Assembly: GCA_903878265.1 (NCBI GenBank)
Contig: CAIRHD010000223.1
Span: 1 to 60,006 of the forward strand
Length of the DNA stretch: 60,006 nucleotides
DNA from: an uncultured Bacteroidales bacterium
Lineage (GTDB): Bacteria > Bacteroidota > Bacteroidia > Bacteroidales > UBA4417
Direction: 5' to 3'
The position numbers were made by a program, and so were the translations under genes. This document shows, piece after piece, positions 22,409 through 42,308 of this stretch. The notes under the pieces were generated by a model. That model was given only the letters and a program-made list of their open reading frames with translations. It was not told the DNA's origin and ran no database searches. How positions within the stretch are numbered: the first letter of the stretch is position 1; every line of letters starts with the position of its first letter.

Positions 22409-22543
22409 AACATAGTTTTTTATTGTTTTGAATCCATTTAATTTCCATTTAACATCTCAATTTCTCTCATTGTATTATACGCAATTTCTTTTTTTCTCAA
22501 TTTCCAGCTTTCCTTTTCTAACCCGTAATACAATTTCCTTTTC

Positions 22544-22579
22544 AAAAAAAAACGCCTCTCGTTGGAATCGAGAAGGCGC
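22544..22579 (-). terminator. Attenuator terminator 2 (proximal to thrA)
   Basis: On the minus strand the sequence is GCGCCUUCUCG-AUUCCAA-CGAGAGGCG followed by U9. This gives a 9-bp GC-rich stem with one bulge. It lies 21 nt after the leader-2 stop. Confidence 0.75.
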
Positions 22580-22600
22580 TTGAATAAAAAGCAATCATTC

Positions 22601-22645
22601 TCAACCCTGTGGAGGTTGGGTGGTAGTTGTAGAAGTGGTTTTCAT
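22601..22645 (-). CDS. Candidate thr leader peptide 2, MKTTSTTTTQPPQG (6 Thr in 14 codons)
   Basis: My own translation gives atg aaa acc act tct aca act acc acc caa cct cca cag ggt tga. A terminator follows directly. It lies upstream of thrA on the same strand. Confidence 0.6.
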   Translation of the reverse strand: MKTTSTTTTQPPQG

Positions 22646-22664
22646 GTCGGCCCTATGCATCCTG

Positions 22665-22703
22665 CCTAAAATTAGAAAGCCATCCGTTTATTGGGATGGC
22701 TTT
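22665..22703 (-). terminator. Attenuator terminator 1 (distal)
   Basis: On the minus strand the sequence is AAAGCCAUCC-CAAUAAAC-GGAUGGCUUU followed by CUAAUUUUA. This is a perfect 10-bp stem at 22676-22685 / 22694-22703. Confidence 0.6.
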
Positions 22704-22731
22704 AATGTTTTATTAACAAAGCAACCCCGTA

Positions 22732-22788
22732 CTACCCCAATGTGGTAGTGGTAACGGTTGTTGACGTTATTTTGTTGGTTTCTTTCAT
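22732..22788 (-). CDS. Candidate thr leader peptide 1, MKETNKITSTTVTTTTLG (8 Thr in 18 codons)
   Basis: My own translation gives atg aaa gaa acc aac aaa ata acg tca aca acc gtt acc act acc aca ttg ggg tag. Terminator 1 follows 28 nt downstream. Confidence 0.55.
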   Translation of the reverse strand: MKETNKITSTTVTTTTLG

Positions 22789-23568
22789 GGTTTATGTTTG
22801 CAAATGTAGGAATAAACTTTTAAATGGAAAAATTTATTTTTTCTGGAATCACAAAATGAGATTCAGTCCTATTAAAATCTGCAAGAAATAGATGAGCGGC
22901 CGGGTTTGACCATTTATGAAAACGTTTTGACTTTTCCGTTGCAGATTCAGCAGAAATAATACAAAATACAAGCGTGTTTCGAGTGAAAAAGTAGCGCAAA
23001 CTGATTTTGCAAAAAGGCACATTAGAAATTTTTCCTTAACACACTTTTATTTCTATTAGTCTGAGAATATTTAGCATATATAGTTGATATACAATAGTAT
23101 GAAAATAATCAATTTTCTAGACATAAATTTCCAAGCTGACATTCAAATGGATGCAAAATTGGTTGTATTGACATTGTGAGTTTTTCGTAAAGCTTGTTGG
23201 TATGAAATTTCAGTTTCTTTTGCCTTCCTGAAATTACCCTTTCACTTGATCCTGATATAAACCTGAATATGAAGCATTTAATCCTGTTAGCAAGCAATCC
23301 CTTGTATTGGTATTTTGGCCATAGCTCTATAGAGAAAAAAGTATTGTTTGGATACCAATCAATAAGGCACTCATTTACCTGCATTTCTTGCGGGAATATA
23401 AGTGCCACTTAAAACTTTTCTGTGAGCGAAGAATATGTAGCCACCACCATTTCCGAAAGTTGTCTACTTGAGGCTGAAGTGACTGACTTCTTTGAAGAAT
23501 AGAAGCTTTCCGAAGTGTTTTGGGTATCTAAAAATGGAAACCTAACATTTAGATTCCAACTACTAACC

Positions 23569-23590
23569 AAAAACTGTAAACCTTTACAGG
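23569..23590 (-). terminator. Terminator at the end of the cytochrome/NrfCD operon
   Basis: On the minus strand the hairpin is CUGUAAA-GGU-UUACAG followed by UUUUU. It lies about 50 nt after the stop at 23638. Confidence 0.55.
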
Positions 23591-23637
23591 TGATAGGCTG
23601 TTTTTTTGATGTTTCTGTTACCGATATTTGAGACCTT

Positions 23638-24528
23638 TTATTCCCTTTTAGGTGATTTAGCCGATTTATTAATCATAACAAGTTGAACGACAGCATATAC
23701 ATAGTGCCCCCATACACCCAGCAGCATAATTATAAGTGTAACCACCATCCAAAGCGGTGCAATAGGAGTCCACAACTCACGCGTAGGACGATCGGGGCTG
23801 ATAAGGTATTTGTGCAGTCCCCAGTTGTTGGCTGCCGATCCTTGTACGGTGCCAAAAATATCATTTTCCTCTATCGAAGCTACAACGGTCAGGTTTCCCA
23901 ATGAATCGCCAATGATGGTATTAGGGAATTCGGCAGTTCCTGTACCTGTTGAATCTAGGGTGATTTCAGCGATTTTCAGCATACTGAACATTTTTGGGAC
24001 TGATACAAACACCGTCCCTTCGGTTATCGGGCTATCCTTCCCATCTCCGCTTAACTGTGTGGCTTCCACTTTTACATAGCGGATTGAATCCTCCTCGTAA
24101 AATGAAACTACCAGTTTTGCCGGTTTCAGGCTGAACTCGCCTTCCGATGCTTCGAATTTGCTGTTTCCTTCGTACACGGCTTTCAGCGAAAGCATCTGCT
24201 GTTCGTTGCGCAGGTATGAGTTGCTTGCAGGAATTTTCAGAACGGCAGTTCCGTGAAAATCGGTCTTGGCCGTGCCTATCTTTAAATCGCCGTCTTTTTC
24301 GACTGAGTAAAACGTTACGGGTGCATTTGCCAGGTTTGTACTTCCACTTTCGTGTTTCACGCTGACGATGCATTTTAGCTGAATGCTATCATCCGATGTG
24401 CTTATACAGGCAAACCGGATAACGGTGCTTGCCGGTGCGGTAGTGTCGGCACCAGCCTGGGCAGATGCCTGCATCCATCCCGTTACCAATATGACAACAA
24501 CTAAAATTCCTGATTTTATCCTTTTCAT
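23638..24528 (-). CDS. Signal-peptide beta-sandwich protein with a C-terminal transmembrane anchor, function unknown (last gene of the redox operon)
   Basis: 296 aa with the signal peptide MKRIKSGILVVVILVTGWMQASAQA. Strand-like segments alternate (DFHGTAVLKIP, TGTAEFPN), resembling Ig or carboxypeptidase-regulatory folds. The hydrophobic helix PLWMVVTLIIMLLGVWGHYVYAVV lies near the C-terminus. It lies 46 bp after the NrfD-like gene. Confidence 0.6.
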   Translation of the reverse strand: MKRIKSGILVVVILVTGWMQASAQAGADTTAPASTVIRFACISTSDDSIQLKCIVSVKHESGSTNLANAPVTFYSVEKDGDLKIGTAKTDFHGTAVLKIPASNSYLRNEQQMLSLKAVYEGNSKFEASEGEFSLKPAKLVVSFYEEDSIRYVKVEATQLSGDGKDSPITEGTVFVSVPKMFSMLKIAEITLDSTGTGTAEFPNTIIGDSLGNLTVVASIEENDIFGTVQGSAANNWGLHKYLISPDRPTRELWTPIAPLWMVVTLIIMLLGVWGHYVYAVVQLVMINKSAKSPKRE

Positions 24529-24574
24529 AATAAATTCTTTAAGACTGATTATTAATGAGCTTTTTACAATACCC

Positions 24575-25900
24575 TTACATCAAATGAAGATCGCCGGGTT
24601 GTTCTGGTTCTTCTTTCAGATCGGAAACTTGAACAATGGGTATAAGTTTTGACCCAATGGTAAAAAGCAGACAAAACATGGCAACACCGGCAGCTGTCAG
24701 GGCCCATTCAACCCAGGTGGCAGAGTATAGTTGCCAGGCAAGCCTTTCATCCTGTATTGGGAGATAAGGTGTTTCGAGTGTAGGAACTACAATCAGGTAG
24801 CGGTTGATCCACAAGGCAATAACCACGACAACTGCGGCTATGGTTATATTGTTGATGGTGCGGAGTTTCCTGAAACCAACCACAATCAGGGGAACAAGCA
24901 CGCCCACATAGTTGGATAAGATAAACAGGTTAAAGTAGTTTTTCAGCAATACCTGTATGAGTTGTTCGTCATTTTTTTCCGATCCATACCATTTTGTCAG
25001 GTATTCGCTGAAAGTAAAGTACCCGAAAAAGGCTCCCAGAACCAGCATGATAACTCCTACGTTTACAAAGTGTTTGAGTGTGATGTGCTCCTCAAGGTGG
25101 TATACCTTTCTGAAAACGAACATCGATACTATAAGTACCCCGGTTCCTGAATAAACGGCAGCGATTACAAAGTAAGGACCAAAAATTGTACTATGCCAGC
25201 CTGGCTGAAGTGTAACACTGAAAATCCATGCCAGTACAGAGTAAACTATAATGGCTATTGCAATTACCATTCCTGCCATAACATCAGTAGCTCTTTTAAG
25301 CCTAAGTTGTTGCTCTGGAGTACCGGTATAACCAAGTGCCAGGATTTTGTACATTTTTTTCTGCCATTGTGGAACTTTTAGTTCGGTAAAATCGCGCATT
25401 TTACCTAAATCGCGCAACAATGCCAGATAAAGGAATAGAATACATCCAATGATATCGGTTGAGATTGCAATTACGTCCCATGTAATTGGTGACTGAATTC
25501 TGCCAAAGAGAATCAGGTTCGGCAATCGGTCGAGCCGGCCAACACACAGCATGATAAAGCAAGGACCAATTAAAAGTGAGATAATGGTAATGAACTCTGC
25601 CATCCGGATGATAGGTTTGCGCCATTCGGAATGAAAAAGGTGCAATGTACCCGAAATAAGAGCTCCCGCATAACTGATACCCATGAAGAAAATGAAATTC
25701 ACGATATATACACCCCAAACAACGTTATCTCGCATACCAGTAACTATGTGTCCGCGCGATACTTGCCAATATAGTGCAAACCATCCATAACATATTACTA
25801 AGCATAGAAAAGCAATCCAAAGTTTGCCAAAATTGCCTGTGCGCTCAATCTGAGGAGCGAATTCTTTTAATAATTTGTCTGAATTTACTGTATCGCTCAT
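24575..25900 (-). CDS. NrfD/PsrC-family integral membrane (quinone-interacting) subunit
   Basis: 441 aa that are almost entirely hydrophobic, with about 10 predicted helices. The pattern resembles NrfD/PsrC/DsrP/HmcC. Its ATG overlaps the FeS gene stop (TAATG, sharing base 25900). Confidence 0.8.
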   Translation of the reverse strand: MSDTVNSDKLLKEFAPQIERTGNFGKLWIAFLCLVICYGWFALYWQVSRGHIVTGMRDNVVWGVYIVNFIFFMGISYAGALISGTLHLFHSEWRKPIIRMAEFITIISLLIGPCFIMLCVGRLDRLPNLILFGRIQSPITWDVIAISTDIIGCILFLYLALLRDLGKMRDFTELKVPQWQKKMYKILALGYTGTPEQQLRLKRATDVMAGMVIAIAIIVYSVLAWIFSVTLQPGWHSTIFGPYFVIAAVYSGTGVLIVSMFVFRKVYHLEEHITLKHFVNVGVIMLVLGAFFGYFTFSEYLTKWYGSEKNDEQLIQVLLKNYFNLFILSNYVGVLVPLIVVGFRKLRTINNITIAAVVVVIALWINRYLIVVPTLETPYLPIQDERLAWQLYSATWVEWALTAAGVAMFCLLFTIGSKLIPIVQVSDLKEEPEQPGDLHLM

Positions 25901-26868
25901 TATTTGGCCTCCTTACTAATTTTAGCATTTTTCACATAAGGCGTATTTTCAAACCTTTTCAGGGTTTCCTCATCGAGTCCGTCCAAACCACGTTCAACAG
26001 GGAATTGCCTGTCGACCGGTGGCAGGTAATACACATTCGGTCGGGTTCCAAGGTTATCGAGGTACCTGTATCCCGAGCGATCGCGTATCAGCTCGCTGAA
26101 CTTAAAGGTTTCGGTGCCATTGGTAACAACATCTTCGTCGATATCACCAAAATAGATTACTCCCATTGGACACGCTTGTGCGCAATAAGGTAATTTCCCT
26201 TCCCGTGCCAGATCAGGGCAGAAATCGCATTTGGAAACGGTTCCTTCAACACCGGGAACACTTTTTTCGGGTGAATAGGGTTGGTCAATATCAAATGCCT
26301 CATCGGGTTTCCAAGCAAACACGCGGGTTGAGTAGGGGCAGCCTGTCATACAGAATTTACATCCTATGCAACGTTCGTTATCAATAAGTACAATTCCGTC
26401 GCTTCGCTTATAAGTTGCACCTACAGGACAAACACTCACACACTGTGGATTGTCGCAATGGTAGCAAGGTTTAGGGAACCAGTAAGGTGCAGTTTTTTCG
26501 GAGTCCTGCATCAGGTATACCTTCATAAATTCCGTTTCTTTGGGCAGGTTATGTCCTTTCTGGCATTCTGTTACACATTTACGGGCATTTTTACACCTGG
26601 CAAGGTCGATAACCATCACAAACTTACGCCCGGGAATGCCCAGGTGTGATTCTTTACGGCCAACAGGGGCCTGGGTAAGGAAGTTTTTATCCACTTCCAT
26701 AACTTCTCCTGTGGTAGTAAGTACCTTTATTTTTTCTCCGGATTCACCCGACGCACTTTTGCCCGTTACTATTAAAGCACCGGTGGCAACTGTGCCTGCA
26801 CCCGCCAGTAATCCCAATTTGAGAAAATTCCGCCGGGAATTGTTGTCGTCCTTTTTATTGTTTTCCAT
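25900..26868 (-). CDS. Tat-exported 4x[4Fe-4S] ferredoxin-type subunit (NrfC/PsrB/DsrO/HmcB-like)
   Basis: 322 aa with the twin-arginine signal SRRNFLKLGLLAGAG. Four Cys clusters are present (CKNARKCVTEC, CYHCDNPQCVSVCP, CIGCKFCMTGCP, CDFCPD...CAQACP). Confidence 0.85.
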   Translation of the reverse strand: MENNKKDDNNSRRNFLKLGLLAGAGTVATGALIVTGKSASGESGEKIKVLTTTGEVMEVDKNFLTQAPVGRKESHLGIPGRKFVMVIDLARCKNARKCVTECQKGHNLPKETEFMKVYLMQDSEKTAPYWFPKPCYHCDNPQCVSVCPVGATYKRSDGIVLIDNERCIGCKFCMTGCPYSTRVFAWKPDEAFDIDQPYSPEKSVPGVEGTVSKCDFCPDLAREGKLPYCAQACPMGVIYFGDIDEDVVTNGTETFKFSELIRDRSGYRYLDNLGTRPNVYYLPPVDRQFPVERGLDGLDEETLKRFENTPYVKNAKISKEAK

Positions 26869-26936
26869 AGTAATTCATTTTAAGTTCTGTAACGAGATGC
26901 TTTTTTTCGATTCCTTTTTTATCCGGATGTCGTACT

Positions 26937-27554
26937 TTAGTGTGATTCGTGAAAACCGTTTATCATGCTTTTAAAATTACTGACAAAAGTGGCTCCAATA
27001 GTGCAGAAATAAATGTGAATAAGCATAAAAAAGGATACGAAGAAACCAAGAATTACATGGAAGAAGTCATTGATTTTCAGTCCACTGCCTCCCATTATTT
27101 TGGTTAAAACAAATTCAGGATACAATAAAGCCCAGCCTGTAATTATTACAATAGGAACAAGTACAAACATTGCTGCAACATAAGTAAACTGTTGCAACGG
27201 ATTGAACTTGCTTTCCTTAGTTACAGGAAACGGCGGTTTTTCATGTTTAAAGATCCCAAAAGTATAATAAGTGAATTGTTTTATCAGCCTTCCCAAGAGT
27301 CCTTTGAATGTAAGCTTGTAATACTTTCCATTAGGCGTTGTGATAGTACCAAACAGAAACCAGCAATAATTAATTGTGAGTATTACCCCGCTTAAGTTAT
27401 GCATAGAAACGGCAATATCGAAGCGGATAAATGGATTTGCCGGATTGGTGTACTGCATGCTTACTCCACTTATTATGAGCAGAATGATTAAAATAGCATT
27501 TAGGCCATGCCACAACCTTAGCCATACGGGATAAAGATATATTTTTCCTGACAT
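26937..27554 (-). CDS. Dihaem b-type cytochrome membrane subunit (PhsC / HydC / FdnI-like)
   Basis: 205 aa with four or five TM helices. Conserved His lie in the helices (RLWHGLNA, SMHNLSG, FFHVILG, MLIHIY). Its ATG overlaps the heptahaem gene stop (TAATG, sharing base 27554). Confidence 0.75.
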   Translation of the reverse strand: MSGKIYLYPVWLRLWHGLNAILIILLIISGVSMQYTNPANPFIRFDIAVSMHNLSGVILTINYCWFLFGTITTPNGKYYKLTFKGLLGRLIKQFTYYTFGIFKHEKPPFPVTKESKFNPLQQFTYVAAMFVLVPIVIITGWALLYPEFVLTKIMGGSGLKINDFFHVILGFFVSFFMLIHIYFCTIGATFVSNFKSMINGFHESH

Positions 27555-28537
27555 TATTTTTTGCGTTTTAGTATTCTGAGTGAAGCATGAATTAGGATGC
27601 CGGCGGCTACACAGCCAAACATGATTAGGCTTAGTATGCCAAGATAGTAATTCCGGTTAGCACCGATTACATAACCTTCGTTCATAATAACCCCATTATA
27701 AAAACCAGCTTTGCTGCGGCCTTCCTGCACTTTATATTTATACAAGGAAGCCATAAGAATCGAATTGGTCGAATGACATTCAACACATCGCCTAACTGCT
27801 TTTGCTTTTGGCTGAATGTTGTGGGCAACCAGAATGGAGTCGTTGGTACGGGCGTGGCACTCGATGCAACGCACATTTTTGAAATGCAAGGCCTGATTAG
27901 GCAACCATTCGTGTTTTTTTACAATATTTGGATTTACTTTGTCCGTAAGCATCTGGTAATTTGTAATATCGGCATGACAATTCAAACAGATTGCATTGTC
28001 GTAAGCAACAATATCTTTGATCTTGTCTTCGGAACGGACACTTATTTTGTATGAGTGTGGATTATGGCACATCCAGCAGTTAAAATCCTCGCTGTGCTTG
28101 GTCGAATGCACACTTTCGTGAAATTCTGATTCTATTTTTTCGAATTGAAATTTGGCGTAGGTTTCGTCTCCGCCATGGCAATCAATACACGCATATTTTG
28201 ATTCCATCCGTAAGTTACCGGCGTGAGGGAAAGTGCCGTATTCTTCTGAATGGCAATCGGTGCATTTAAATGTCTTATGGTTTGAATCATAAAATTCAGT
28301 ACGATTAATAATCGTTTCGGCGTACATCCTTTTAGTGACTTCAGAACCTGATTCAGGGTTGAGGTACTTATATTTAGATTGCCCGTGGCATTTCAGACAA
28401 TTCTCGTTGAAGTCTATCGTTTCTTTTTTGGGCTTGTTTTGGGCATCTATCGCACCAGACAGCATTACAGCCATGAATAATGCCAATGGAACAGATACAG
28501 GGACTTTTATGGAAATACGAGGAAAAAAGGACATCAT
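27554..28537 (-). CDS. Heptahaem c-type cytochrome with a C-terminal membrane anchor
   Basis: It has seven CXXCH motifs (CLKCH, CTDCH, CIDCH, CWMCH, CLNCH, CIECH, CVECH) and an N-terminal signal MMSFFPRISIKVPVSVPLALFMAVMLSGAIDA. The C-terminal helix is YYLGILSLIMFGCVAAGILIHA followed by RILKRKK. I placed the start at Met46 (28537), because the longest ORF (28672) overlaps the upstream gene. Confidence 0.85.
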   Translation of the reverse strand: MMSFFPRISIKVPVSVPLALFMAVMLSGAIDAQNKPKKETIDFNENCLKCHGQSKYKYLNPESGSEVTKRMYAETIINRTEFYDSNHKTFKCTDCHSEEYGTFPHAGNLRMESKYACIDCHGGDETYAKFQFEKIESEFHESVHSTKHSEDFNCWMCHNPHSYKISVRSEDKIKDIVAYDNAICLNCHADITNYQMLTDKVNPNIVKKHEWLPNQALHFKNVRCIECHARTNDSILVAHNIQPKAKAVRRCVECHSTNSILMASLYKYKVQEGRSKAGFYNGVIMNEGYVIGANRNYYLGILSLIMFGCVAAGILIHASLRILKRKK

Positions 28538-28632
28538 CTTTTTAAAATTAGTAGAACAGCTTACCTTTTGTGCAAAAAAAAAGAAAAGAGTGTTCTGAAA
28601 TCTGTCAGAAACACCCTTTTCTATGCTTGAAA

Positions 28633-29049
28633 TTATTTTTTCAAGGTACGGATGTAGCCTATTACAGCCCACCTGTCGGATTCATTCAGGATTTTCTTCT
28701 CAAAATTGGGCATTTCATCGCGTCCAATATACGACATGTAATAAAGTTCGCCATCGGAATAAGCCTGGAATTTTGCATCTGAAAAATTTCCGGTACTGGT
28801 TTTCAGGTTGGCAGCTTTTGGGCCATCGCCTAAACCTTTGGCACCATGACACGATTTGCAATGTTTGTTGAAAGTTTCCTTGCCAACACCGGCAATTGAA
28901 GGGTCACCTGCTTTTACAGTGCTTTTCATTGCTTTGTACTTAGCTGGGATTGTCCATGGTCCACCAGCTTTTTGAGCCATTGCCATGTTTGCAGTTAAAA
29001 AAATCACTGCTGTGCAAATAATTGCGAGAAGTTTGATTGAATTTTTCAT
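28633..29049 (-). CDS. Periplasmic class I monohaem cytochrome c
   Basis: 138 aa with a signal peptide. There is a single CKSCHG motif followed by GLGDGPKA, and a distal Met region GRDEMPNF. Confidence 0.8.
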   Translation of the reverse strand: MKNSIKLLAIICTAVIFLTANMAMAQKAGGPWTIPAKYKAMKSTVKAGDPSIAGVGKETFNKHCKSCHGAKGLGDGPKAANLKTSTGNFSDAKFQAYSDGELYYMSYIGRDEMPNFEKKILNESDRWAVIGYIRTLKK

Positions 29050-29113
29050 TTTTTTTGTTTTAATTGGTTATTATTAGTTTAAGCAAAAAATATTCCAAAC
29101 TTAGGTTTACGTT

Positions 29114-30064
29114 TTAAAAATTCCAGAGCCGTGTAAGGTTGAAACCTATCAGGATTCCACCATTGAAAAAGTCATTCTTGTTCCACATTATATCTTCCTG
29201 TGGCAAAATCCCTTTTGCTGATGCAATGTAAATCTGGAATGCATGGGTGCTGGTAGATATTTCAACGCCAACTGTAAGATTAGGTTTGTCGTAAACAACG
29301 GCGGCATCAGATACTCTTTTAGCATCCTTTATTTTCTTTAAATCTAAAGGGAAATCACCGGCTACAATAAATGAACCTTGTGGCGAGAATTTGTATCTGC
29401 CGGCGAAAGACAAAGAAATCCTGTCGTGGTCGTATATGGAATCAACACAATTATAATGTGTAAACGCACCGCCAACTTGTAATGAAAGGTGATCGTTAAA
29501 CCTACGCGAAACTACCAATTGTGTGAAATACGACATCCTGTTACTGAACTTGTAGCTTTTAGTACTTACAGTATCAGGGGTTAGATCCCATTTGGTGTCC
29601 GCATTTCCATCAATTCCAATAACTTCGTACAACATAACAGTTACAGGAATACTATTGGAACGGGTTTGCTCAATAATTCTGTATTTCAGTTGCAAATCCT
29701 GGAACTTATTGGTTTTAGTAGTTCCCAAGCCAACGGTAAAGTTATCCAATATGCTGTAATTAAGCCCAAACCGGATATTTGCCGCACCATAAATGCCATA
29801 AAGATCGTGTACGCCATTTTCAATAATTCCAAAACGATGCTGTAGAACGAATTCCAGTGTTTTCGATGGTTGAAGTGTGGTGGTAGCATTATCGAAAAGC
29901 AAACCGCTTTCGAATGCAGCCCTTACCGGTTGTTCAGTTTCAACTGGTGTTTCCTGAACTGTGGTATCCTGTGTAGCTTCCTGCGCAACAATCCTGGTTT
30001 GGGTTGCTAAAATAGTTAAGAGCGTGAAAGCGCCAAATCTAAGTGTCTTATATATCTGTTTCAT
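29114..30064 (-). CDS. Putative outer-membrane beta-barrel protein, function unknown
   Basis: 316 aa with a signal peptide ending VAQE. Amphipathic strands alternate throughout. The C-terminus LIGFNLTRLWNF ends in an aromatic residue, as in OMP barrels. I assigned no family beyond this. Confidence 0.6.
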   Translation of the reverse strand: MKQIYKTLRFGAFTLLTILATQTRIVAQEATQDTTVQETPVETEQPVRAAFESGLLFDNATTTLQPSKTLEFVLQHRFGIIENGVHDLYGIYGAANIRFGLNYSILDNFTVGLGTTKTNKFQDLQLKYRIIEQTRSNSIPVTVMLYEVIGIDGNADTKWDLTPDTVSTKSYKFSNRMSYFTQLVVSRRFNDHLSLQVGGAFTHYNCVDSIYDHDRISLSFAGRYKFSPQGSFIVAGDFPLDLKKIKDAKRVSDAAVVYDKPNLTVGVEISTSTHAFQIYIASAKGILPQEDIMWNKNDFFNGGILIGFNLTRLWNF

Positions 30065-30094
30065 GTTTGTTTTTTTTAATGATTAGTGTTCAGC

Positions 30095-30478
30095 TTAATC
30101 GTTTTTTGCACCAGCATAAATCCAACGGTACAACAAATCGACCTCGGCATTTGTAACATTGCCGTAAGAAACCATGCTTCCGCCAGGAGCACAAACGGTA
30201 TAGAGTTGGCTGGTTTCAGGGCTATTGGCAACTACATAAGCTGGAACTACGTCAGAATATGCTAACCCAGCTGAAAGGTTCGGTGCAATGCTTCCTGCAT
30301 GACAGGAAACACATTTAGCATTAAAAAATGGCTGAATATCCTGCGAAAAACTGATTGTATCGTTTGCAGGTGGTGCTGGTTTGGGTGGTGCAGGTACAAT
30401 ATAATCATATTCACAGGCTGTTAGCAATGTAAGCACTGTGCCCGACAGGAATAATAATCGTAGAAATCTCTTTTTCAT
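30095..30478 (-). CDS. Small lipoprotein with a single c-type haem motif (planctomycete-type cytochrome c-like domain)
   Basis: 127 aa with the lipobox LLTAC and a Pro-rich linker PAPPKPAPPAND. The motif IQPFFNAKCVSCHAG follows. It is the first gene of the operon. Confidence 0.7.
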   Translation of the reverse strand: MKKRFLRLLFLSGTVLTLLTACEYDYIVPAPPKPAPPANDTISFSQDIQPFFNAKCVSCHAGSIAPNLSAGLAYSDVVPAYVVANSPETSQLYTVCAPGGSMVSYGNVTNAEVDLLYRWIYAGAKND

Positions 30479-30616: not shown

Positions 30617-30630
30617 TTGATACTTATCAG
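30617..30630. promoter_or_regulatory. Candidate FNR/CRP-family box TTGATacttATCAg
   Basis: It matches the palindrome TTGAT-N4-ATCAA at 9 of 10 positions. It lies in the divergent spacer, 139 bp from the operon ATG (30478) and 103 bp from the regulator ATG (30733). A weaker second site, TTGATatatGTCAt, is at 30639-30652. Confidence 0.45.
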
Positions 30631-30732: not shown

Positions 30733-31437
30733 ATGCCTAAGTACCAATATACCCAATACAGCAAAGGATGTGCAACTTGCCAAGATAAGGCCGATATTTT
30801 TGCTTGCCTTTGTCAGGCTGAACTCGATCAGATTGATGATACACGAGTAGAAGTCCATTTTAAAACTGGTGAACTAATTTTTAAACAAGGCACCCCAAAT
30901 ATGCATTTCCTTTGTTTGACCCAAGGCAAAGTGAAAACGTACATCGAGGGATACAATAATAAAAACCTGATCCTCAATATTGTAAAGCCAATTGAATATA
31001 TACTTGGCCCTGGTATTTATGCCGATCAGATGCACCATTTTTCAGCTATGGCAATAGAGGATTCGGTTGCCTGTTTGGTTGACCTGGTTACGTTTAAAAA
31101 ATTGATCCGTACAAATCCTGATTTTGCCGAAGATTTTCTGCGAAAAGTCAGTCTGCAATCCATTTATAATTACGAACTTTTTATAAGTCTTACCCAGAAG
31201 CAAATGCCTGGCCGTATTGCTGATGTACTGTTGTATTTGAAAGATAAAGTGTACTGCACTAACCCTTTCCATTCAACCCTTTCACGACAGGATTTGGCTG
31301 ATATGTCGGGGATGTCGAAAGAAAGTGTCATACGGATTCTCAGGGAATTTAAGGATGAAAACATAATCAGGGCAAATGGCAACGATTTTGAAATCTTAAA
31401 TATCGATCATCTGAACAAAATTAGCCAAACTGGGTAG
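30733..31437 (+). CDS. Crp/Fnr family transcriptional regulator with an N-terminal Cys cluster
   Basis: 234 aa. The N-terminus carries C13-x2-C16-x8-C25-x-C27 (GCATCQDKADIFACLC). A cNMP-binding-like beta-roll follows, then the C-terminal HTH SRQDLADMSGMSKESVIRILREF. Confidence 0.85.
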   Translation: MPKYQYTQYSKGCATCQDKADIFACLCQAELDQIDDTRVEVHFKTGELIFKQGTPNMHFLCLTQGKVKTYIEGYNNKNLILNIVKPIEYILGPGIYADQMHHFSAMAIEDSVACLVDLVTFKKLIRTNPDFAEDFLRKVSLQSIYNYELFISLTQKQMPGRIADVLLYLKDKVYCTNPFHSTLSRQDLADMSGMSKESVIRILREFKDENIIRANGNDFEILNIDHLNKISQTG

Positions 31438-35491: not shown

Positions 35492-37663
35492 ATGAAAAAA
35501 AATCTACCATCTTTATCAGGAAACACAATCCGGATTTTTCTGTTTCTTTGTGTTTCGGCATTGTTTCAATCCTTTTCCGGGAATTCTGTTCACGCACAAA
35601 TTTGGAGGCCGGAAGGGCTAAATATGCCCGGCGCATGGAACGGCTGGACAAATCCACCAACAAATAATCTTGCTTTAGCCAGTAGCACACAGGTTGCCGG
35701 TGGCAGGATTGCAATTGATACGGTTGGAACAACCCGCTGGAAAACAATATTCAGCGTTGCTGCCACTGGCGGCGATGTTGTTGGCGGAACATACCCTTGG
35801 TTGTTTACAAGCGGACCATCAACTGCTGCTTTTAACAATAAGTGGGCAAGTGTAACTGTGGTTTTTAATACACTTCAAACATACACTTACCAAGGAGCAA
35901 CCGACAACAATATTACAATTGCCAATGGGAAATGGTACTCCATGAACTGGGAAGATAAAGGCTACATGGGCAGCAGAGCAATCTTTATGGAAACAAGTGC
36001 ATTGCCGGTAAATATACTTTCGGTTTCAGTCCCCGTTTCTGTTAGTCCGAACACCGCAACTCCTATTACAGTTACAACTTCGGCAGCGAAAAGTGCAGAA
36101 GAAATAATATATTTACGTTACACCGCCGATGCTTGGGCTACGTCCACTGCTTTACCTGTAACAATGAGTGGTACAAGTGGTTCAGTTGATTTGCCCGGGC
36201 AAGCAAGTGGGACAACAGTCTCGTATTACGCTCTTTCTTCGACAGTTGCAAATTTGAGTGCAAATTTTGATTTGTGTTCCATTCATATAAATAGTAATGC
36301 TGGAGCAAATTACTCCTATTCTATTGCAGCACCAGTGCCAACAATTACATGGGCAAATTTGCAATATCCCGGAAGTGGCGCTATTGATACGGGGGAAACA
36401 TTTGAAGTTTTCGGACAGGCACTTATTCCTGGGGTAACAGGCCAAGATACATCTGCTCCAGGATTGCTGGCCTGGGTTGGATACAGCACTTCAAACACCA
36501 ATCCCAACACATGGACAAACTGGATTTTAGCTACCTACAATAGCGATGATGGAAATAATGATGAATTTTTTGCCGATTTGGGTGCAGTAATTCCCACAGC
36601 TGGAACGTATTACTACGCCACACGTTTCCAATTGAATGTTGACCCATTTGTTTACGGCGGTTACAACGGCGGCTTTTGGGATGGAACAACCAATATAAGT
36701 GGTATCCTTACTATTACCGACCCAATACCTAATCCTGATTTTGATTGGGTTAACCTGCAATATCCTGATACCGGAAATATTGTTGTGCAACAAGACTATC
36801 TTGTTTTTGCTCAAGCATATATAGCAGGAGTTACAGGACAAGCCACGCCGGCGGCCGGTGTTCAGTCGTGGATTGGCTATAGCACAACAAATTCAAATCC
36901 TAATACATGGAATAACTGGATACCTGCACCATACAATGCCGCTTCTGGAAATAACGATGAATTCAGCGCAAACTTAGGGGCACAACTTCTTTTATCAGGA
37001 ACCTATTACTATGCTAGCCGGTTCCAACTAAATACTGGCAGCTATTATTATGGTGGCTATTCGCAAAGTGGCGGCGGTATTTGGGATGGAAACGACAATA
37101 TTTCTGGCGTTGTTACCGTAAATGCTCAGGTGGTAAAATTTCCGGTTCTTTTTACCATTATTGATGGAACCCTTTTAAATACAAATATCAAATTCAAAGG
37201 GTCGATGACTGCCTGGGATACAGTGAGTATGATACCTAATAACCATACATGGACTCACTCAATGGATCTTTTACCAGGAACTTATGAATGGGGCGCAATC
37301 GAAGATGATGGAACAGCAAATGGTTTGTGGTTGATTGCCGGTACAAATAACCTTAGTGTTACAGTTGATAATTCGGGAAACATCACGGGTACAATTACAT
37401 ATACCACATCAATAACAACTGGAATTAAAGAACCTGAATCTATTTTTAATGTTTATCCAAATCCCACCAATGGGAATTTGAATGTTCAACTTCACGAGAA
37501 AGCCAGTTTGACAATCTTTGATTTGGGTGGCAGGAAGCTTATTGATATTCAAAATGGTGTAGGTAATCAACAAATCGATTTGACTGCGTATAAATCAGGG
37601 TCTTACATTCTTGAAATCCGTTCTGGGAATTCTGTTCACCATCAGGTGATTGTTAAGAAGTAG
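35492..37663 (+). CDS. T9SS-secreted protein with two tandem ~145-aa repeats and a CBM-like beta-sandwich
   Basis: 723 aa with a signal peptide. The repeats begin WANLQYPGSGAID... and WVNLQYPDTGNIV..., and both contain W(V/I)GYST(S/T)N(T/S)NPNTW(T/N)NW and GNNDEF. The C-terminus FNVYPNPTNGNLNVQL...ILEIRSG...VIVKK is a T9SS type A sorting domain. Confidence 0.8.
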   Translation: MKKNLPSLSGNTIRIFLFLCVSALFQSFSGNSVHAQIWRPEGLNMPGAWNGWTNPPTNNLALASSTQVAGGRIAIDTVGTTRWKTIFSVAATGGDVVGGTYPWLFTSGPSTAAFNNKWASVTVVFNTLQTYTYQGATDNNITIANGKWYSMNWEDKGYMGSRAIFMETSALPVNILSVSVPVSVSPNTATPITVTTSAAKSAEEIIYLRYTADAWATSTALPVTMSGTSGSVDLPGQASGTTVSYYALSSTVANLSANFDLCSIHINSNAGANYSYSIAAPVPTITWANLQYPGSGAIDTGETFEVFGQALIPGVTGQDTSAPGLLAWVGYSTSNTNPNTWTNWILATYNSDDGNNDEFFADLGAVIPTAGTYYYATRFQLNVDPFVYGGYNGGFWDGTTNISGILTITDPIPNPDFDWVNLQYPDTGNIVVQQDYLVFAQAYIAGVTGQATPAAGVQSWIGYSTTNSNPNTWNNWIPAPYNAASGNNDEFSANLGAQLLLSGTYYYASRFQLNTGSYYYGGYSQSGGGIWDGNDNISGVVTVNAQVVKFPVLFTIIDGTLLNTNIKFKGSMTAWDTVSMIPNNHTWTHSMDLLPGTYEWGAIEDDGTANGLWLIAGTNNLSVTVDNSGNITGTITYTTSITTGIKEPESIFNVYPNPTNGNLNVQLHEKASLTIFDLGGRKLIDIQNGVGNQQIDLTAYKSGSYILEIRSGNSVHHQVIVKK

Positions 37664-40817: not shown

Positions 40818-42308
40818 ATGAAAAGTATTAAATTCTTATTTGCAGCAACCGCACTATTTTTTTTAGGATTCGCTGTTTCTGCTCAAGACAATTCAAATGA
40901 GAAGCTCAACCTCCCAGGTGATAACCTCAACCTGTATGCGGTAATGAACCTTTTTAAGGAATCGGAAACTCTCGAAGGTTTTGAAAAAAAACTGAATGCT
41001 GAAGACTCGAAAATCAACAACCTCGATTTAAACGGTGATGAAAAAATCGATTATATCAAAGTTGTAGATAATGTGGATGGCGACGTGCATACGATTGTAT
41101 TACAAGTTGCAATCAGCAAGATGGAAAATCAGGATGTGGCTGTGTTTACGGTGCAAAGAGATTCAAAAAATCAGGTTCAGATTCAGCTTGTTGGTGATGA
41201 AGAATTGTATGGAAAGGATTACATCATTGAGCCTATTTATGGCGAAGGGGCTACAAGTGAAACTCCTAATCCAGGATATACTGGCAATACAACAGTTCAA
41301 AAGCAAACAGTTGTGGTTACTAAAACAACCTATGTAGAAGTAGCAAGTTGGCCTGTGGTAACTTATATTTATGTGCCAACTTATACCGTTTACCGTTCGC
41401 CTTGGTATTGGGGTTATTATCCAACATACTGGAAACCATGGAGTCCGTACTATTACGATTATTATTACGGTTACCATTACAACTATCATAGCCACTATTA
41501 TGGGCATTACCACCACAGCCATTACAACAGGTATCCACATTATAACGATCATTACTACAACGGTCACCGTTCGCATTCCAATACAGTATATCAAAGACGT
41601 GAAAGCGGAATGTACAAAAATACATATTCGCGCCCCGATACGCGGCAGCAGGGTTCTGCCGATTTCAACAAAAAGTATCCTAATGGTTATCGCCCTACCG
41701 AAAGACCTGGAAATATAAACAATGTAACTCGTCCTACATCAAAACCAAACACAACTACTAATGGTACCCGCCCTACAACAAAACCTGGCACATCCACTAT
41801 TGGCAGTCGTCCTGCAGCAAAACCTGGCACAACTACTAATGGTACCCGCCCTACAACAAAACCTGGCACAATCACTAATGGCAGTCGTCCAGCAGCAAAA
41901 CCTGGCACAATCAATAATGGGACGCGCCCAACCACGAAACCAGGCACAAACAACCCTGAAACCCGGCCGACCACAAAACCGGGAAACAATACCAACTCAA
42001 CGCGCCCTTCAACCAACCAGCCAACAACCCGCCCGGCAGTTGTGCCAACTACTCCAAAAAATGAGAATAACAAAATGAGTCCACGGCTCGAAAGCAGACC
42101 TAATACCCAACCCAGCCAACGGCCAACAAACACCCCAACAACACGTCCATCAACTACTCCAACTTCAAGACCATCAGCATCTCCAACGGCAAGGCCATCA
42201 AATACTCAGGCACGACCAACAACAACTCCAAAATCTAGACCAGCCACTTCTCCATCTTCAATGCCTGCGGGACGTGCTGCATCAAACGAAACCCCAAACA
42301 GGCGTTAA
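40818..42308 (+). CDS. Secreted low-complexity protein: folded N-domain, Tyr/His-rich block, Pro/Thr/Lys-rich repeats
   Basis: 496 aa with the signal peptide ...GFAVSAQ. A Tyr/His block follows (YYYDYYYGYHYNYHSHYYGHYHHSHYNRYPHYNDHYYNGHRSH), then repeats of (N/G)(G/S)(T/S)RP(T/A)(T/A)KPGT. At the DNA level a 78-bp unit starting at 41753 repeats at 41831. Confidence 0.7.
   Translation: MKSIKFLFAATALFFLGFAVSAQDNSNEKLNLPGDNLNLYAVMNLFKESETLEGFEKKLNAEDSKINNLDLNGDEKIDYIKVVDNVDGDVHTIVLQVAISKMENQDVAVFTVQRDSKNQVQIQLVGDEELYGKDYIIEPIYGEGATSETPNPGYTGNTTVQKQTVVVTKTTYVEVASWPVVTYIYVPTYTVYRSPWYWGYYPTYWKPWSPYYYDYYYGYHYNYHSHYYGHYHHSHYNRYPHYNDHYYNGHRSHSNTVYQRRESGMYKNTYSRPDTRQQGSADFNKKYPNGYRPTERPGNINNVTRPTSKPNTTTNGTRPTTKPGTSTIGSRPAAKPGTTTNGTRPTTKPGTITNGSRPAAKPGTINNGTRPTTKPGTNNPETRPTTKPGNNTNSTRPSTNQPTTRPAVVPTTPKNENNKMSPRLESRPNTQPSQRPTNTPTTRPSTTPTSRPSASPTARPSNTQARPTTTPKSRPATSPSSMPAGRAASNETPNRR

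Follow-up and report, generated by a model that had tools for sequence, protein, structure and literature searches.

An operon of eight minus-strand open reading frames (ORFs), at positions 23638-30478 of a 60-kb stretch of contig CAIRHD010000223.1 from an uncultured Bacteroidales bacterium (the whole stretch is called the window here), appears to be a good candidate for moving electrons across the outer membrane. We name its genes G1 to G8 in transcription order (Table 1). All functional statements made here about the operon are read from sequence, and the balance of that evidence tilts slightly toward a chain that would carry electrons outward, from the quinone pool to the outer membrane. 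On the inner-membrane side, the parts belong to known kinds or are variants of them: a CbcBA-type pair of a heptaheme c-type and a diheme b-type cytochrome (G4 and G5), and an ActC/NrfCD-type module of an iron-sulfur (FeS) protein, a polytopic subunit, and a new immunoglobulin (Ig)-like subunit (G6, G7, and G8). The new element is an outer-membrane triad, previously undescribed, of a periplasmic monoheme cytochrome (G3), a DUF5777 β-barrel (G2), and a small lipoprotein cytochrome (G1), which is like MtrCAB and Cyc2 in logic only. Literature searches covering DUF5777, Bacteroidota outer-membrane cytochrome conduits, and the cytochromes of Labilibaculum and Prolixibacter found the operon undescribed beyond a remark on cbcBA.

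Conservation of the core and the heptaheme c/diheme b pair

With the barrel as query and one genome per species, relatives were found in at least 404 genomes, the best 80 coming from Bacteroidales, Lentimicrobiaceae, Carboxylicivirga, and Saccharicrinis. ORFs were called in all loci and labeled by phmmer with the window proteins, and components were counted in the 57 loci, from related Bacteroidales, Lentimicrobiaceae, and Marinilabiliaceae, whose flanks were long enough. G1, G2, G3, and G4 were each present in 57/57 and G5 in 56/57, and the cultured carriers of this core are Carboxylicivirga species. The NrfC-like, NrfD-like, and G8 genes were found in 20 of the 57, always all together or all missing. 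An original prediction for this DNA, made from the letters alone, had described the eight genes as one operon; they do not form one co-conserved block, and NrfC-NrfD-G8 is an optional cassette. Its linkage of the barrel and both small cytochromes to the c7 and b pair does hold across the relatives.

The relatives also add to the core. A pentaheme lipoprotein of ~440 aa, with a collagen-like linker and a weak match to the MtrC/MtrF domain, is encoded in the operon in 39/57 core loci, and a membrane-anchored hexaheme cytochrome of the NapC/NirT type occurs in 25/57, usually with a second G3-like gene. The window locus is of the minority type without both. In relatives the hexaheme and pentaheme genes occupy the position after G8; in the window, the 1.2 kb between thrA and G8 (22409-23637) holds no ORF of more than 100 aa and no Rfam match, and no remnants of a decayed hexaheme NapC/NirT gene or pentaheme lipoprotein were found there.

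No catalytic subunit accompanies these parts. Pfam scans of all other large ORFs found no molybdopterin protein, NrfA, NosZ, MccA, or ActB-sized protein in the window, and none of the 57 related loci has a catalytic subunit (molybdopterin, NrfA, MccA, or NosZ) adjoining the operon, so that the absence described in the original prediction extends to the relatives. We rejected an identity as a Nos accessory set or as Nrf, Psr, or Phs for this reason, and the set is likewise distinct from Alternative Complex III (ACIII), as set out below. The idea of a conduit toward the outer membrane thus survives for the core, since the core lacks a catalytic subunit, is co-conserved, and is neither ACIII nor a Nos set.

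The G4/G5 pair has the architecture of a characterized quinol oxidase. G4 matches profiles of the c3/c7 families and carries seven CXXCH motifs plus exactly seven further His that are invariant across 75 sequences, from which all seven hemes are probably bis-His ligated, with no open catalytic site. Its C-terminal hydrophobic segment was recovered in a transmembrane (TM) scan, and 99% of the 75 sequences keep a His in this anchor (His362 in the 372-aa frame, His317 in the 327-aa protein). G5 matches PRK15006, a PhsC-type model, at 5e-52 (177 bits against a cut-off of 204), and its four invariant TM His are H16, H52, H166, and H180. The two genes overlap by 1 nt. By sequence, G5 has no solved relative and G4 a marginal one only.

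In Geobacter, CbcBA consists of a 7-heme c-type cytochrome, whose C-terminal anchor supplies a His, and a diheme b-type cytochrome resembling that of thiosulfate reductase; this menaquinol oxidase is required when extracellular respiration proceeds near -0.2 V, close to the low-potential limit. Homologous clusters were noted in the Bacteroidetes Prolixibacter, Marinilabiliales, and Labilibaculum, and cbcBA was proposed as a possible marker of extracellular electron transfer (Joshi et al. 2021). G4 has the same seven hemes and His-bearing C-terminal anchor, and G5 is the adjacent four-TM, PhsC-like diheme b-type cytochrome, with the c gene before the b gene. Here, however, the pair sits in an operon with outer-membrane components, G5 itself bears all four TM His, and control is by an FNR/CRP-type regulator and FNR box rather than a sigma-54/BccR regulator. 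The pair is therefore not a novel composition, and CbcBA, rather than the CbcL named in the original prediction, is the closest Geobacter analog.

The outer-membrane triad

G2 is a full-length member of its family, scoring 234.9 bits against a cut-off of 23.1 and covering model positions 1-247 of 247. An AlphaFold2 model (mean predicted local distance difference test score [pLDDT], 69.5) shows a 12-strand barrel, for which Foldseek returned FapF, Tsx, OmpG, and NanC at E values of 1e-7 to 1e-6. A profile search of 1.84 billion representatives placed the DUF5777 family in 1,482 clusters at 50% identity, and one member (P0277, 615 aa) has two tandem DUF5777 barrels in one protein. Across 239 diverse members, conservation reaches 98-99% at His76 and His274, and ~15 other positions are conserved with them, which is unusual for a barrel family.

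The two small cytochromes flank this barrel. G1 has a weak NCBIfam match (LIC11213_lipo, 3e-10), and aligned members of its family have a CX2CH or CX4CH motif and keep one Met. We infer from its sequence that G1 is an outer-membrane lipoprotein; the C-T-K-D/E-x-G-P start of distant G1 homologs and of the pentaheme lipoprotein resembles the Bacteroidetes surface-export signal. The Met of the MPN motif of G3 is conserved in alignment, and G3 matches the CcoP and PedF profiles as well as, weakly, its best named match, cytochrome 579. A six-frame scan confirmed the nine c-heme sites counted in the original prediction, 1 in G1, 1 in G3, and 7 in G4, with no CXXCH elsewhere in the 60 kb. Because G4 has seven extra His and G1 and G3 a conserved Met each, no open coordination site is evident, and all nine c-hemes appear to be six-coordinate, which fits pure electron transfer and is compatible with either direction.

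The triad is widespread in Bacteroidota and recurs in distant members of the phylum, well outside the core. A class I cytochrome c is fused to the N-terminus of a DUF5777 barrel in ~65 clusters at 90% identity, including one from a Lutibacter metagenome-assembled genome (MAG), and the fused domain is homologous to G3 (E of ~1e-12 to 1e-14 at Z = 1e6). Among seven distant DUF5777 loci, a lipoprotein cytochrome of the G1 family, whose motif is CXXCH or a variant, lies 3′ of the barrel in 7/7 and a G3-like cytochrome lies 5′ of the barrel or is fused to it in 6/7, often with a CRP/FNR regulator nearby; in none of the seven does a CbcBA-like pair or NrfCD cassette adjoin the barrel. From this distant recurrence and the fusions, G3-G2-G1 emerges as a conserved, portable outer-membrane triad with varied partners.

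Several of the flanking genes point to an extracellular partner, as they encode heme-Reeler or lysyl-oxidase-like proteins secreted by the type IX secretion system (T9SS). A T9SS-secreted protein with one CXXCH and a Reeler/'choice-of-anchor V' domain, a putative extracellular c-type heme protein exported by the type IX system, is encoded directly 5′ of the triad in two loci (L086, 7206-7994; L065, 8686-9480), and in the core-type loci L065 and L066 it stands directly 5′ of G1. Three distant triads (L087, L088, and L090; for example, L090 4883-10347) adjoin a T9SS-secreted lysyl-oxidase/Ig_7 protein and a NapH-like Fer4_5+TPR membrane protein, a sign that this outer-membrane module may also serve another, different electron-transfer system.

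The triad invites comparison with two kinds of conduit. Like MtrCAB and the Geobacter Pcc and Ext systems, it combines a periplasmic cytochrome, a barrel, and a lipoprotein cytochrome and is tied to inner-membrane quinol oxidases, and the relatives add a multiheme lipoprotein with weak similarity to the MtrC/MtrF domain. The large enclosing barrel is lacking, however, since G2 has 12 strands versus 20-26 and is, on its model, too small to sheath a cytochrome in the fashion of MtrB; G1 and G3 are monoheme His/Met proteins rather than deca- or octaheme bis-His wires, and neither the G2 model nor Foldseek revealed homology of the triad to MtrCAB, Pcc, or Ext. With Cyc2/Cyt572 and Cyc1/Cyt579 it shares the pairing of a monoheme class I-type cytochrome with a small outer-membrane barrel, fused within some DUF5777 proteins. 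It differs in that the genes are split in the window, the barrel has 12 versus 16 strands and belongs to PF19089, a lipoprotein cytochrome is added, and the hosts are anaerobic heterotrophs in which quinol oxidases accompany the triad.

The second comparison raises the possibility of inward flow, in which dissolved Fe(II) or some other external reductant would be oxidized at the triad, as in Cyc2/Cyt572 to Cyc1/Cyt579 Fe(II) oxidation, and G3 would hand the electrons on. They would go either to a terminal oxidase or reductase encoded elsewhere or, at the cost of proton-motive force, through the CbcBA-like and ActC-type modules and uphill to the quinones. The natural cytochrome c-barrel fusions mirror the Cyc2 layout, G1 and G3 are His/Met monoheme proteins, two family-invariant barrel His could bind a metal ion, and the proton pathways of ActC-type NrfD proteins could permit reverse flow. 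G3 and the fused domain both score best against cytochrome 579 (34 and 65 bits), but these scores are far under the cut-off of 280, and no sequence relationship of the 12-strand barrel to the 16-strand Cyc2 was shown. CbcBA, moreover, is characterized as a quinol oxidase, no oxidase or nitrate reductase is linked to the operon in the window or the flanks of related loci, and the carriers are saccharolytic heterotrophs with polysaccharide-utilization loci that would gain little from uphill flow. We regard inward flow as unlikely.

The NrfCD-Ig cassette, regulation, and surroundings

In the optional cassette, G7, with ~10 hydrophobic TM segments in a TM scan, is closest to ActC of ACIII (6f0k_C, 1e-53; 6btm_C, 2e-52), which agrees with the 10-helix ActC-type NrfD subunit. 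The best profile match of G6 is DsrO/TtrB/QrcC/NrfC. Its invariant Cys number 15 and are arranged 3+4+4+4 with the three-Cys site first, which fits three [4Fe-4S] clusters plus one three-Cys site and not the four [4Fe-4S] clusters previously assigned to it; in this respect it is of the NrfC/ActB-B2/QrcC type. G8 has two Ig-like sandwiches in an AlphaFold2 model (pLDDT, 72.6) and a C-terminal TM helix that is highly conserved in alignment. None of its 384 homologs fell into a Pfam family, the window protein itself giving a weak Ig-like match, and a structure search returned generic Ig-fold matches only, with no sequence match in the PDB. G8 looks like a dedicated third subunit of the cassette, one without counterpart in solved complexes. 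In composition the cassette parallels Qrc, and it shares with Geobacter Cbc4 (CbcSTU) the combination of cytochrome, FeS protein, and NrfD-type subunit with no catalytic subunit.

We rejected an identity as ACIII. ActB is a protein of ~950-1040 aa with a molybdopterin-like B1 domain, whereas G6 has 322 aa and matches the C-terminal FeS part of ActB only. ActF, ActA, ActD, and ActE are also missing, as there is a single NrfD gene, G4 has no ActA match, and the window holds no other cytochromes; the cassette, unlike ACIII, is optional within its operon family (20/57); and the quinol-site residues of ActC are not conserved. These residues are His139, Asp169, and Asp253 in R. marinus numbering, of which G7 keeps Asp169 (D142) and replaces His139 by Cys119 and Asp253 by Ile226. 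The Cys in place of the quinol-ligand His is invariant across the 25 G7 sequences compared and may signal a different quinone-site chemistry in this NrfD subgroup.

The same cassette bears on a second alternative, already raised in the original prediction, that the operon encodes a periplasmic quinol:cytochrome c oxidoreductase replacing bc1 or ACIII. Reduced G3 would then feed unlinked periplasmic enzymes such as cbb3 oxidase, NosZ, cytochrome c peroxidase, or nitrite reductase, with the barrel and lipoprotein serving substrate entry or assembly. The ActC-like character of G7, the resemblance of G6 to the FeS proteins of ActB, Qrc, and PsrB with a three-Cys first site, the likeness of G3 to oxidase-donating class I cytochromes seen in its CcoP and PedF matches, and an FNR control suited to microoxic or anaerobic respiration all agree with it. 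Yet genes for G3 homologs directly adjoin DUF5777 barrel genes, or are fused to them, also at loci devoid of a quinol module, and G3 therefore belongs with the outer-membrane triad and is not a free carrier. The barrel and G1 are also conserved as strictly as the c7 and b pair (57/57), and neither the window nor the flanks of related loci hold a terminal enzyme. On these grounds we consider a bc1 substitute improbable.

Profile searches against Pfam and NCBIfam bore out the family assignments of the original prediction, G8 giving just the weak match noted above, and all eight ORFs lay where it had placed them (Table 1). The gaps between genes, in transcription order, are 30, 64, 95, -1, 68, -1, and 46 bp. 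This reproduces the earlier spacing of -1 to 95 bp provided that G4 begins at the ATG at 28537 (MMSFF...), which agrees with its 327-aa homologs, and not at the GTG at 28672, to which the open frame reaches upstream.

Table 1. Features of the operon and its flanks in the window
Feature	Coordinates	Strand	Supporting observations
G1, small lipoprotein monoheme cytochrome	30095..30478	-	lipobox LLTAC; CVSCH; GSM methionine conserved
G2, DUF5777 outer-membrane β-barrel, 12 strands	29114..30064	-	PF19089 1e-69; conserved N-terminal segment; H76 and H274 invariant
G3, periplasmic class I monoheme cytochrome c	28633..29049	-	PF00034 Cytochrom_C 3e-12; CKSCH; MPN methionine conserved
G4, CbcA-like heptaheme cytochrome c	27554..28537	-	signal peptide; 7 CXXCH; C-terminal TM anchor with conserved His
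G5, CbcB-like/PhsC-like diheme b-type cytochrome	26937..27554	-	Ni_hydr_CYTB 1e-22; four invariant TM His
G6, Tat-exported NrfC/PsrB-type FeS protein	25900..26868	-	Fer4_11 and TAT signal; 15 invariant Cys
G7, NrfD-family membrane subunit, ActC type	24575..25900	-	PF03916 3e-31; ~10 TM segments
G8, accessory subunit of NrfCD cassette	23638..24528	-	signal peptide; two Ig-like β-sandwich domains; C-terminal TM helix (GVWGHY)
FNR/CRP-family regulator, divergent	30733..31437	+	cNMP_binding and HTH_Crp_2
FNR-box-like palindrome CTGATAAGTATCAA (operon strand)	30617..30630		~138 nt 5′ of G1 start codon
Weak AT-rich hairpin and T-run 3′ of G8, possible terminator	23569..23590	-	sequence reading

The regulatory link drawn in the original prediction became stronger. 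The best NCBIfam match of the divergent regulator is Fnr (PRK11161, 7e-15), it has four N-terminal Cys (C13, C16, C25, and C27), and it is present in 55/57 related loci. The palindrome CTGATAAGTATCAA is a near-consensus FNR box, and a TTGAT-N4-ATCAA box with at most one mismatch occurs in 58/74 homologous regulator-operon intergenic regions, at a fairly constant distance of mostly ~100-160 nt from the first gene. With an FNR-family regulator and such a box upstream, the operon has the features predicted for a member of an FNR-type regulon. At the other end, the terminator formerly placed at 23569-23590 exists as a hairpin, CTGTAAAGGTTTACAG, followed by T5, but it is weak and AT-rich and was missed by a terminator scan.

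The surroundings bear on a third alternative, an assimilatory or homeostatic envelope metal reductase for uptake or detoxification, or an electron supply to secreted copper or heme enzymes, in either case non-respiratory. One fusion-type triad adjoins a TonB-dependent receptor, a paralogous barrel and lipoprotein set adjoins a P-type ATPase and a cation-efflux gene, Reeler-domain heme proteins and lysyl-oxidase-like T9SS cargo flank triads, and the window encodes a FeoAB fusion at a distance of 23 kb. Against this, the neighbor associations are all missing from the window, the metal-transport neighbors may be mere synteny among close relatives, and an operon with an FNR box, two or three dedicated quinol modules, and nine hemes resembles a respiratory system of high flux; we hold a metal reductase to be very unlikely.

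The remaining large ORFs of the window showed no link to respiration in Pfam scans. They include two SusC/SusD pairs with glycoside hydrolases, thrA/B/C, a major facilitator superfamily transporter, a superoxide dismutase, an M23 peptidase, UvrA, RecA, and FeoAB, and there is no Rfam match anywhere in the window. A 496-aa secreted protein at 40818-42308 (+) has a Tyr/His-rich segment (YYYDYYYGYHYNYHSHYYGHYHH...) followed by long Pro/Thr-rich repeats and has no Pfam match. A 723-aa T9SS cargo at 35492-37663 (+) has an internally duplicated domain of ~130 aa and no other recognizable family; it was rejected as a Reeler or lysyl-oxidase partner, being unrelated to those secreted proteins.

In the relatives, seven loci (L010-L013, L016, L020, and L024; for example, L011 4338-6633) have a paralogous second set just upstream of the main cluster, made up of a DUF5777 barrel, a tRNA_anti-like OB-fold protein, and two G1-like lipoproteins, one without CXXCH, and adjoining an S41 peptidase, a rhomboid, and a P-type ATPase. 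Two barrel loci (L056 and P0464) are labeled as Omnitrophica and Gammaproteobacteria MAGs. They are probably mis-binned Bacteroidota contigs, because the P0464 locus (L090) has genes with T9SS tails and L056 has the Bacteroidales core order. The 'giant PCC cluster' of Lentimicrobium (PMC13013709) was rejected as the same locus, having 61- and 20-heme proteins.

Proposed electron path and its significance

We propose that anoxia would induce the operon through the FNR-type regulator. Menaquinol would be oxidized by the CbcBA-type pair, diheme b-type G5 and heptaheme c-type G4, and here also by the optional ActC-type cassette of G7, G6, and G8, and both quinol modules would reduce the soluble His/Met monoheme cytochrome G3. 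G3 would then dock on the periplasmic face of the G2 barrel, as suggested by the fusions that put the cytochrome at the barrel N-terminus, which in barrels of this kind is periplasmic. From G3 the electrons would reach the G2-G1 pair and then an acceptor located at the outer membrane or outside it. This acceptor could be a metal or shuttle, dissolved or chelated, that enters the barrel; it could also be a redox protein, either on the surface or secreted by the T9SS, or, in most relatives, the pentaheme lipoprotein. The membrane of ~3 nm might be bridged by a dissolved species in the pore, by a cofactor on the invariant His pair, or by the G1 linker passing through the pore; a substrate entering the pore has been proposed for Cyc2. 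Such a chain would have no enzyme active site of its own and would serve as an anaerobic electron sink, and the outward direction, from quinol to an external acceptor, is the most likely one.

Several points weigh against this path. The window has no pentaheme lipoprotein, NapC/NirT hexaheme, or nearby secreted redox protein, and because these extra partners are absent the chain ends at two monoheme proteins. The modeled 12-strand barrel cannot enclose a cytochrome domain, and hemes on opposite faces would be too distant for direct transfer without a barrel cofactor or a substrate passing through. His/Met monoheme cytochromes are typical of oxidase routes or Fe(II)-oxidation chains and not of Fe(III) reducers, and the best named match of G3, albeit weak, is to cytochrome 579. 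Of the three residues at the ActC quinol site, G7 retains just one. The homology of G4 and G5 to Geobacter CbcBA (GSU0593 and GSU0594) is drawn from architecture and a literature statement, not from direct alignment, and no paper found by our literature searches mentions DUF5777.

More broadly, we put forward tentatively, as a rather doubtful proposition, that the triad is a Bacteroidota-wide minimal trans-outer-membrane conduit in which His76 and His274 would bind a heme or metal bridging the two monoheme proteins, and which would plug into varied quinol modules and power or drain extracellular partners. The quinol modules may be of the CbcBA, ActC-type NrfCD-Ig, NapC/NirT, and NapH types, and the partners may be T9SS-secreted heme and copper proteins or mineral acceptors.

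Bacteroidota rank among the main anaerobic degraders of polymers in sediments, digesters, and bioelectrochemical reactors, and to our knowledge they have no defined outer-membrane electron conduit. The operon offers a compact, testable candidate, with a five-gene core that the barrel marker places in at least 404 species-level genomes, carriers in culture, an FNR handle, and modular quinol-oxidizing partners, and it gives the DUF5777 family (~1,480 clusters at 50% identity) its first functional context. If just two monoheme proteins and a 12-strand barrel do move electrons through the outer membrane, the design space of conduits would be wider, and the triad would provide a genomic marker for trans-outer-membrane electron transfer in Bacteroidota.

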